A stretch of 61,722 bases of DNA, the filler included, from Collodictyon triciliatum (taxonomy: Eukaryota), in assembly GCA_043381765.1 (NCBI GenBank). It is 6 parts of 6 records of this genome, joined end to end, with 100 filler letters (N's around TTAATTAATTAA, not from the genome) between each part and the next. Parts side by side here need not be neighbours in the genome. Positions count along the whole stretch, not along the records: positions 41,117 to 54,708 come from JBHJMP010001957.1; 5 more parts are not named here. One strand, given 5' to 3'. Shown piece after piece: positions 52,013 through 53,936 of this stretch (position 1 is its first letter; each line of letters starts with the position of its first letter). The position numbers were made by a program, and so were the translations under genes. The notes beneath the pieces are model-generated. The model had not been told where the DNA came from. It did no database searches and worked only from the letters and a program-made list of their open reading frames with translations.

Positions 52013-53936
52013 TTAAAAGAATTTTCTTGAGTATATATTTTTAGCGCTGTTTAAGTCCTTTGTCAAGAATACATCTTGTTTGCTTTCTGAGCGATTGCAT
52101 TATATACATATGAGACATCTAAACAACTTTTTTTTTTGAATTTCCTTTCAGTATTATATATTCCAGTTCTTTTTCGCAGTTGCAGTACATCTTGGAGGTT
52201 CTAAATTCATTTACACAGAGTCAAAACGTTTGGATAGTATTTTTCGTAATGCTCTTCCGATTGCTGGCTTAAAATGCTTCATCAGACATTTTCTGCTCCA
52301 GTTTCCATACGCCAGTACACCATCCATGCCAAATGTCTTTTCGATTCAGTCCATACACAACTGTTCACTTTTTTTTGTATTAACATACTGTCTCCATCTC
52401 ATCTTTCGAAAAGTTACGTGTTCATAAAATCTGGATAGTTCTATCTGATATCTTGATTTCATAGATACATATTCTAGAATTTTTTTTCATAACCGAGCGT
52501 GCATTAATTATGTTTACTCAGTTCTGTCTGTAAATCGATTAAAGATACTCTTGATGTCTCAAACTGCTAATTCTCTTCAATAGTCATGCGACCAAAAGAA
52601 ATAGCACTTTGTAAATCTGTTGTCATTTATGTCTCTGAATAATTGTACTTTTCTTTCGTGCAAGAGCATTTTGTGATTTTTAAGATATTTGCTATCATGT
52701 CTTCTTTGGTGTGCCGTGTAACGTGATTTCTTGCCTGTCTCATCCACCATGTAAACCGAATTAAACTTGCCTGCGTCTACTCCAACATTTTTTTTGTCGC
52801 TGATTAAAGATAACTGCTCTTCGGAAAGTTCTTCTATATAAACATATTCTTGGGTATTTCGATTATATTTGGATTTTGAATTTGAAATACCTTTCTATTC
52901 AAACAATAATGACACTGCCAAGCCGTCTGTTTGTATCATGTATATAAAATTGTAGTCTCTTTGATGAAAGACTCTTCTTCATTTCAAAGAAGTCATCCCA
53001 TAGGGTTTCCTTGCGTCTTGATATATTCTTCATTAATGATGTTTTGCCAGATGATACTAATAGATCTATCAAACATGCAGTATCTGGAGTAATATGACAT
53101 TGTGTATTGGTAGTTCTTATAGAGGTTGGTTGAAGCAGTTTGGTTCCAATATCCCCAAAAATGCGATTCATGTAAATCAGAAATGGAATGTACTTATTTG
53201 GATTGACTTTGGCGTCATATTCGATACTTTTTACAATATCGCTGGGAATGATATGATGCAAATGCGTTATAGTCCATCCTTTATATTGCTCCGGTATTTC
53301 GAGATTTTTGAAGATGGCTTTTTCTTTTAAAGTTTCGTAACTCTGCCTTTTTAATAGCTTCCGTAATATTCACAACTTTAGGTACTGTTTGATTTATGAA
53401 GCGCAGTAACCTCTTTACAAAATGTACTCCTTAATGTTATTATGATAAGCTGCTGACATTTGCTTCGCCAAGTACGGTAATAATGAGACAGTCCAACCAA
53501 CGGAAAGCGTTCTTCTCGGGGCAAAAGGAATCGAAAATCATAGAGATAAAAAGTCATCATGCCATCTCTCATTTCTGGTCTTTTTTTTTTAACTTGTGGG
53601 TCTATCTTGTGAAACTATTCCGATTGTCTTCAAAACGTACAAAAAAACATTTCATCGATTGTTGGGAGTTGTTTTGATTTAAATATGTAGCATCTTACAA
53701 GCAGATAAGTGTCGGCAACCAAATTATGAAACAATAAAATCGTATCGCTGATTATGTCATAGCCATCCGCATTCTTTACAATCGACTTTAGATATGTTTT
53801 CAGATTTCGATAGTCTGATTTTACCGACTTTAGATTCTCAAACTCAAGATGTTATCTTTTCTTCATCTGAAAGTATTTTTTTCTTTTTCCTTTAGAAAAC
53901 TACCGAGTTTTCAATTGTGATATAACTCTAGTCCAT
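52013..53936 (-). pseudogene. Fanzor1 (eukaryotic TnpB-derived RNA-guided RuvC nuclease), disrupted by stops and frameshifts
   Basis: Manual multi-frame translation gives collinear motifs: YRNLKTYLKSI, LPYLAKQM..YHNNIKE, LLRFINQT, YDAKVNPNKY, HITPDTACL, MIQTDGLAVSLLF (~52926), RuvC-I VGVDAGK (D 52775-52777), FRKMRWRQY, LAYGNWS (52295-52309), RuvC-II VNEFRTSK (E 52206-52208), a Zn-finger remnant, and RuvC-III TKDLNSAKNI (D 52055-52057). Confidence 0.9.

Follow-up and report, generated by a model that had tools for sequence, protein, structure and literature searches.

Fanzor1 is a eukaryotic relative of TnpB, known from many eukaryotes and from giant viruses; in intact elements the protein binds a guide RNA drawn from the 3' end of the element, and matching DNA is cut by its RuvC site. 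Fanzor proteins can be recognised by a D-P-G motif, by the missing glutamate at the canonical RuvC-II position and by another conserved glutamate later in the chain: the relevant passages of bioRxiv 10.1101/2023.08.09.552727 describe the D-P-G motif and the shifted glutamate, those of PMC10530073 the rearranged glutamate of the RuvC site, and those of PMC3627910 a conserved Gly and Glu (G500 and E536) typical of Fanzor1. Mariner-type Fanzor1 elements, namely PGv-1 of Phaeocystis globosa virus and its relatives, have been in print since 2013 (PMC3627910), as have Fanzor1-only, non-autonomous mariner relatives such as PUl-4 (Bao and Jurka 2013, PMC3627910). Degenerate "ghost" Fanzor loci are described in the corresponding sections of Saito et al. 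2023 (PMC10432273) as multi-copy families that include loci without a working nuclease, and loci that have neither inverted repeats nor a transposase are reported there too. Here we describe a Fanzor1 pseudogene on the minus strand, at 51900-53866, of a 61,722-nucleotide stretch of DNA from the Collodictyon triciliatum assembly GCA_043381765.1, the whole of which, six joined parts with filler included, is called the window below. We are highly confident that this relic is a dead Fanzor1 copy from a repeated family of host elements, that it gained its lesions after insertion, and that it has no transposase of its own.

The reading of the locus as Fanzor1 rests on homology over nearly the whole length of the gene. 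Our query P0001, a 311-residue read-through of one minus-strand frame with X at the stops, was compared by phmmer with 1.84 billion cluster representatives and gave 892 matches with an expectation value (E) of 1e-3 or less, 234 at 1e-10 or less and 5 at 1e-30 or less, the best being P0003, an intact metagenomic protein of 634 amino acids (E 4.1e-54). In tblastn against the window, residues 3-127, 133-302 and 304-588 of P0003 fell in collinear order on 53863-53498, 53483-52974 and 52972-52034 (summed E 1.7e-84), and a frameshift-aware alignment gave 262 identities over 584 aligned residues (45%). The initial annotation, which had named this locus a Fanzor1 relic overlooked by the open reading frame (ORF) track, had staked its assignment on similarity of exactly this collinear kind. 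Among solved structures, P0001 matched PpFz1 of Parasitella parasitica (9cf0) first (E 5.7e-6) and SpuFz1 of Spizellomyces punctatus (8gkh) next (3.6e-4), each in two collinear stretches, one covering the TDG/RuvC-I part and the other the G-N-W part; the N-terminal piece P0002 alone matched no structure in the PDB. A profile of 32 full-length relatives of 585-722 amino acids, A1, matched PpFz1 (E 3.3e-97), SpuFz1 (5.7e-93) and GtFz1 of Guillardia theta (9cer; 1.8e-78) over profile positions 8-601, so that similarity to established Fanzor1 proteins, like the collinearity with P0003, includes the REC/WED half. On the similarity searches, the A1 profile matches and the published Fanzor marks, the relic is a Fanzor1 gene. 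Among the search clusters, that of P0004 holds a 378-residue Fanzor1-like protein whose source names it a "6-pyruvoyl-tetrahydropterin synthase", which looks like a misannotation.

The limits of the gene differ from those first proposed (52013-53936). It starts at ATG 53866-53864, and strong coding similarity runs down to 52034; beyond this the similarity is weak and fades at about 51900 (tail score reached by 3 of 500 shuffles), which suggests that the coding sequence may once have extended to about 51900. The longest unbroken frame, 156 amino acids at 52899-53369 on the minus strand, belongs to the N-terminal REC/WED-like half and aligns to residues ~175-302 of P0003 and to the fragment P0024; taken by itself it matches nothing in Pfam or the PDB.

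Three-frame translation of 54150-51850 recovered the motifs of the initial annotation in the order it gave, IQTDGLAVSLLFE, VGVDAGK, FRKMRWRQY, YGNWS, NEFRTSK, a cysteine cluster and KDLNSAKNI, scattered over all three minus-strand frames with stops between them; a one-frame read-through gave the same picture. All three RuvC acidic codons are intact (GAC 52777-52775, GAA 52208-52206 and GAC 52057-52055), the single positions quoted earlier for them (52775, 52206 and 52055) being the low ends of these codons. Ahead of RuvC-I, IQTDGLA (52916-52936) keeps T318, D319 and G320 of the relatives' alignment. RuvC-I itself, VGVDAG (52769-52786), holds its catalytic Asp in the setting of the D-P-G (D-hydrophobic-G) motif, with Ala for the usual Pro. 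At the place of the canonical RuvC-II Glu, YGNW (52298-52309) has a Gly that aligns to LGNWS of PpFz1 and MGDWS of SpuFz1 and whose column, G496, is invariant in 32 of 32 relatives. The later, shifted Glu beside the zinc finger lies in NEFRTS (52194-52211), readable only past a frameshift at ~52216; its column, E530, is likewise invariant (32/32) and stands 34 alignment positions after that of G496. RuvC-III, KDLNSAKN (52037-52060), has Lys for the usual Arg.

The zinc-finger region (52097-52187) has Tyr at the first ligand (52187-52185) and Cys at 52178, 52108 and 52099, and it is interrupted by a frameshift at ~52124-52142 and by the TAA at 52102. Measured against the pattern of [TS][TS]-x-x-C4 followed by RD, the relic has T-S, three of the four Cys, and KD for RD with the Asp intact; its family fits the C4 zinc-finger and RD feature, and the window copy is damaged there. 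Among the columns that never vary in A1 are those of the RuvC-I Asp and of the Pro next to it, the G-x-W Gly, the Glu ahead of the zinc finger and the Asp of RuvC-III. Of the 12 invariant columns the relic keeps its residue in 10, and of the 29 nearly invariant ones in at least 19; the D, G, E and D that make up the rearranged RuvC site are all kept. These counts come from an alignment to the family that is unreliable in its middle part. Conserved sites that have changed include D-P-G, where Ala stands for Pro, the first zinc-finger ligand, where Tyr stands for Cys, and R-D, where Lys stands for Arg. That RuvC-I reads DAG had already been remarked upon; among fetched proteins with a recognisable RuvC-I motif, DPG occurs 106 times, DKG twice and DAG twice, the DAG bearers P0026 and P0121 being fragments among the relic's nearest relatives. 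The motif is a subfamily trait and no lesion, because these related fragments share it.

A lesion map was drawn from the alignment to P0003 and from alignments to the closer fragments P0024, P0014, P0121, P0026, P0108 and P0036. The stops and frameshifts that had been noted in general terms resolve on the shortest path into about 10 frameshifts (~53647, 53600, 53497, 53426, 53340, 52975, 52660, 52485, 52216 and 52124-52142) and 7 in-frame stops (TAA 53854, TAG 52897, TAA 52629, TAG 52569, TAA 52506, TGA 52348 and TAA 52102), with two further stops in the weak tail. Because the frame is broken in about 17 places, the relic is unable to encode an enzyme. One of the fragments, P0036 (84 amino acids, from a public genome record), is itself the translation of another decayed copy from this family, with 62 of 83 residues identical to the window; it follows a shifted frame near 52270, so that copy bears a different frameshift.

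The gene had been proposed to be intronless, and one stretch bears directly on this. At 52540-52660 on the minus strand the relic carries an insert of ~30 residues that is read in another frame, contains the stops at 52629 and 52569, and has its homologues in inserts that P0014 and P0121 carry in frame (KT-x-EEAQRP in these fragments against MTIEEN*QFE in the window, the asterisk marking a stop). Removal of an 82-nucleotide GT..AG candidate intron at 52648-52567 would join two frames exactly, and this candidate was ruled out by the homologous in-frame inserts. Contigs also cross 52648-52567 unspliced. Because the inserts of P0014 and P0121 are in frame and homologous, the extra sequence is a subfamily-specific coding insert with a frameshift, and the gene is intronless.

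Independent sequence from fresh waters bears on the reality of these lesions, four sequencing runs having been compared with the stretch at 80% likeness. Short contigs from three freshwater metagenome studies cover 52081-52307, 52411-52561, 52540-52690, 52626-52774 and 52800-52950 with 0 to 2 differences, and these near-identical contigs reproduce the stops at 52102, 52506, 52569 and 52629, the Tyr codon, and the frameshift sites near 52124-52142, 52216, 52485 and 52660. More diverged copies were found in X7, the run of "organism A", which gave 374 contig pieces over all 30 bins and 5 to 25 contigs at each listed site; 22 pieces are at least 99% identical to the relic, 74 lie at 95-99%, 146 at 90-95% and 132 below 90%. 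There, every contig has a sense codon at the stop sites 53854 (9/9), 52897 (15/15) and 52505 (7/7), and all 20 have the letter of the zinc-finger Cys at 52186. At the frameshift sites, indels occur in part of the X7 contigs, at 52971 (8), 53426 (5), 53482 (3), 52216-52217 (3) and 52128 (4). The RNA label of this run is a guess only, no listed run with words of the stretch being recorded as RNA, and we therefore draw no inference on expression. Because near-identical contigs share several of the lesions, and X7 copies lack three of the stops and have indels at frameshift sites, the lesions are judged to be real and the window copy's own, and the relic to be one decayed copy out of a repeated family. 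Lake and river metagenomes contain near-identical pieces of it, and its host is probably a freshwater microbial eukaryote.

The relic shows none of the features of a transposon with defined ends, as neither inverted repeats above chance nor a transposase nor a second copy was found in the window. The absence of a transposase agrees with what had been concluded by eye: tblastn of the viral partner transposase described below against the window gave noise (best E 3), and no Pfam transposase domain was found in the 9 ORFs of at least 75 amino acids between 54054 and 61324, whose only Pfam matches were one MORN repeat and two weak sub-threshold hits (FAM186A/B C-terminal and Connexin). A repeat search of the flanks returned weak pairs only, and an ungapped short-word search of the two flanks, like a search with the inverted repeat of the viral element L001, gave matches of 7-13 bases only. 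A pair of inverted sequences picked out by eye near 54084-54101 and 51751-51764 proved no better than the best gapped match, itself within the range of shuffled sequence. Because it is without a transposase and without inverted repeats above chance, the relic is either non-autonomous, that is a Fanzor-only element, or a truncated fragment. At the 3' end of the gene (51890-51985, minus strand), where the scaffold of the omegaRNA would be expected, three hairpins are predicted that are indistinguishable from chance, the fold having a z-score of -1.73 over 96 nucleotides (9 of 200 shuffles fold as well) and of -0.33 over 281 nucleotides. An nhmmer profile built from 48 viral 3' ends had no match at 51890-52000, its best hit elsewhere in the window having E 0.43.

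These observations are best explained by a dead Fanzor1 copy from a family of elements repeated in the host, which after insertion gathered about 10 frameshifts, at least 7 stops and several conserved-site substitutions and lost its protein. What is left is a Fanzor-only element that is not autonomous, or else part of such an element. By analogy with characterised Fanzor1 proteins, an intact member would have cut DNA under the guidance of an RNA, and the diverged X7 copies point to past mobility, as the description of the relic as a decayed copy of a mobile element implied.

Several results weigh against this account. Among 300 shuffles, 92 attained the score (21) of the best gapped inverted match between the flanks; no second copy of the relic was found within the window; and a run of 394 N at 51217-51610, its near edge 290 bases past the gene, leaves part of the 3' flank unreadable. 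A guide-RNA scaffold was not detectable at the 3' end of the relic by either the nhmmer profile or folding, and Pfam searches of seven separate ORF pieces and of the read-throughs P0001 and P0002 returned no relevant family. The best share of the stretch's sampled words in any run was 0.08, and no run covers the whole stretch. Eight lesions (53854, 53647, 53600, 53497, 53426, 53340, 52975 and 52348) are without cover by a near-identical contig, and one X3 contig that differs at 2 of 151 bases has a different letter at 52897 and no stop there. That one stop may be a polymorphism, a change of very recent date or one that belongs to a sister copy.

The wider family to which the relic belongs is well represented on viral sequences. 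A scan of viral contigs with a seven-member alignment found 390 stretches that encode relatives, 80 of which were kept as loci and underlie the viral locus figures given here; many lie in giant-virus bins, on contigs of up to 289 kilobases. A scan of the viral contigs with P0001 alone found no relative, and in metagenome contigs P0001 found none and P0014 found 3 loci, each only 39% identical. The locus L001, on a 254-kilobase giant-virus contig, encodes a protein 88% identical to P0003, and it lies within a Tc1/mariner-type element (6637-9952) that has perfect inverted ends of 32 nucleotides, a transposase on one strand and an intact Fanzor1 of 634 amino acids on the other. The transposase is a divergent ORF of 346 amino acids with DDE_3 and HTH_28 domains, and one of this kind lies nearby in 23 of the 80 loci. 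The DNA that L001 shares with L002, L003 and L004 amounts to ~3.3 kilobases and is bounded by perfect inverted repeats of 32-33 nucleotides. Of the 40 best matches, P0003 alone is at least 80% identical to one of the 80 kept loci. In a FastTree tree of 136 rows, the relic forms a small clade of its own with the metagenome fragments P0024, P0014 and P0121 (support 99), outside both viral clades, the deeper forks being weak. The resemblance to giant-virus types put forward earlier accordingly holds for the wider group, whose relatives sit on viral contigs, and is only partly supported for the window copy, which the tree does not nest in a viral clade.

The last ~150 bases of the viral Fanzor elements are strongly conserved, from the last codons into the right inverted repeat (48 loci, for example L016 at 9747-9900), and a predicted stem-loop within them has compensatory changes on both sides at 8 of 10 pairs. 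This conserved 3' region is likely to be a guide-RNA scaffold of the viral family. Two further viral 3' hairpins seem, by eye, to covary. In one locus, L042, the conserved 3' end breaks ~100 bases past the Fanzor stop and gives way to GC-rich palindromic sequence, which looks like another small inserted element.

An alternative origin for the relic would be a segment of integrated giant-virus DNA in which Fanzor arrived with the virus and did not spread through the host as a transposon. The 390 viral stretches and the close likeness of P0003 to a protein on a giant-virus contig would be in keeping with this, as would the neighbours of that viral locus, a fused mRNA capping enzyme and N7-methyltransferase, SNF2 helicases and HSP70, which are such genes as giant viruses are expected to carry; virus-borne spread of Fanzor has, moreover, been proposed in parts of PMC3627910 and PMC10432273. 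The relic, however, is only 45% identical to P0003 and groups outside both viral clades, many diverged copies occur in the run of one organism, and the surrounding sequence holds a MORN repeat, simple repeats and, on the minus strand at 48840-49424, a glycerate kinase exon of bacterial type (Pfam Gly_kinase, E 1.7e-39) with ~30 Asn codons in frame ahead of it, and no viral hallmark gene was found among these flanking ORFs. We consider a viral segment quite improbable.

That the gene is intact in the organism, and its stops and frameshifts errors of sequencing or assembly, is less probable still, and in our judgement very improbable. Several frameshift sites do lie at homopolymers (T9 near 53647, A10 near 53600 and A10 near 52130), the check on the lesions rests on contigs of other studies, and the stop that X3 lacks would fit an error; four stops, four frameshift sites and the Cys-to-Tyr change are nevertheless repeated in those contigs with 0 to 2 differences. 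Nor would the reassignment of any single codon explain the stops, since TAA, TAG and TGA all occur, and the standard code leaves a frame of 2533 amino acids open elsewhere in the window. Finally, the relic might derive from another RuvC nuclease of the TnpB superfamily, such as Fanzor2, TnpB or a TranC/Cas12-like protein. The zinc-ribbon/TNB end of the A1 profile (positions 526-590) does touch two LaTranC chains (E 1.3e-4), and the domain that Pfam reports in 22 of the 32 A1 relatives, PF07282 (Cas12f1-like TNB), is a shared one. These two chains, however, match at that end only, whereas the three Fanzor1 structures match almost throughout; they complete the 5 PDB matches at E of 0.01 or less, among which there was no Fanzor2 or TnpB chain. 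A closer Fanzor2 or TnpB match was not found, and no recombinase, such as the serine recombinase associated with IS607-type TnpB, was seen in the flanks. We regard this assignment as so improbable that it is barely credible.

A decayed Fanzor1 copy of a host family is thus the reading that we retain, and in itself it matters little, as this copy cannot work. Fanzor genes are already catalogued by the thousand, together with many dead copies. What the relic does show is that an ORF track overlooks such relics, and it points to a repeated D-A-G Fanzor1 family, in an organism from freshwater samples, in which intact copies could be sought. More tentatively, and with doubt outweighing our expectation, the family may represent an undescribed Fanzor1 subfamily, marked by D-A-G and by the insert of ~30 residues after RuvC-I, multiplied within a freshwater microbial eukaryote to a dozen or two copies or more, and akin to the mariner-borne Fanzor1 of giant viruses; intact members of ~620 amino acids with a working guide RNA may persist there. 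If so, the family would yield a new nuclease of compact size and an example of virus-host exchange. The set of giant-virus mariner elements with Fanzor1 is large and well preserved and has a covarying 3' RNA region, and it could be used for studies of Fanzor guide RNAs.

The rest of the window holds genes of cellular type. On the minus strand, 13848-21449 is a single open frame, that of 2533 amino acids. Its N-terminus bears WD40-like repeats, it has dozens of repeats rich in cysteine (CxxCPxGT...), and its C-terminus, which spans the membrane several times, resembles Ephrin_rec_like/TRP proteins; the few taxa recorded for the matching clusters are mostly green algae, haptophytes and other eukaryotes. 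The window also contains long simple repeats rich in purines, of the (GAAAA)n type, at 54560-54708, 41120-41520 and 50520-50750, one of them ~700 bases upstream of the start codon of the relic. A pattern of 44 N, 12 bases and 44 N occurs at 13612-13711, 27313-27412, 41017-41116, 54709-54808 and 57814-57913, mostly beside simple repeats, and longer runs of N lie at 32632-33004, 33153-33521, 47664-48328 and 51217-51610.

Compared with characterised systems, the relic stands closest in architecture to PpFz1, SpuFz1 and GtFz1, with which it shares the same domain order over nearly the full length, the TDG ahead of a D-x-G RuvC-I, a G-x-W where RuvC-II would canonically have its Glu, an E-x-x-T-S that supplies the shifted Glu just ahead of a zinc finger of the C4 type, and the (R/K)D of RuvC-III. 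Unlike these proteins, the window copy is broken and untranslatable, reads DAG in RuvC-I and has low direct identity to them, and its relatives are shorter, at about 590-690 amino acids. The giant-virus Fanzor1 transposons of Tc1/mariner type, of the PGv-1 kind, are linked to it through its best intact relative, the counterpart of which, the L001 protein, sits in one of them; the window differs from such transposons in that it lacks a transposase, inverted ends and any recognisable boundary flanked by TA, and its scaffold is cellular-looking. With respect to the "ghost" Fanzor loci, in so far as they are set out in those sections of PMC10432273, the relic differs in that no retained guide-RNA scaffold was detected in the window; in other respects it is like them, being without inverted repeats or transposase, dead as a nuclease and derived from a multi-copy family.

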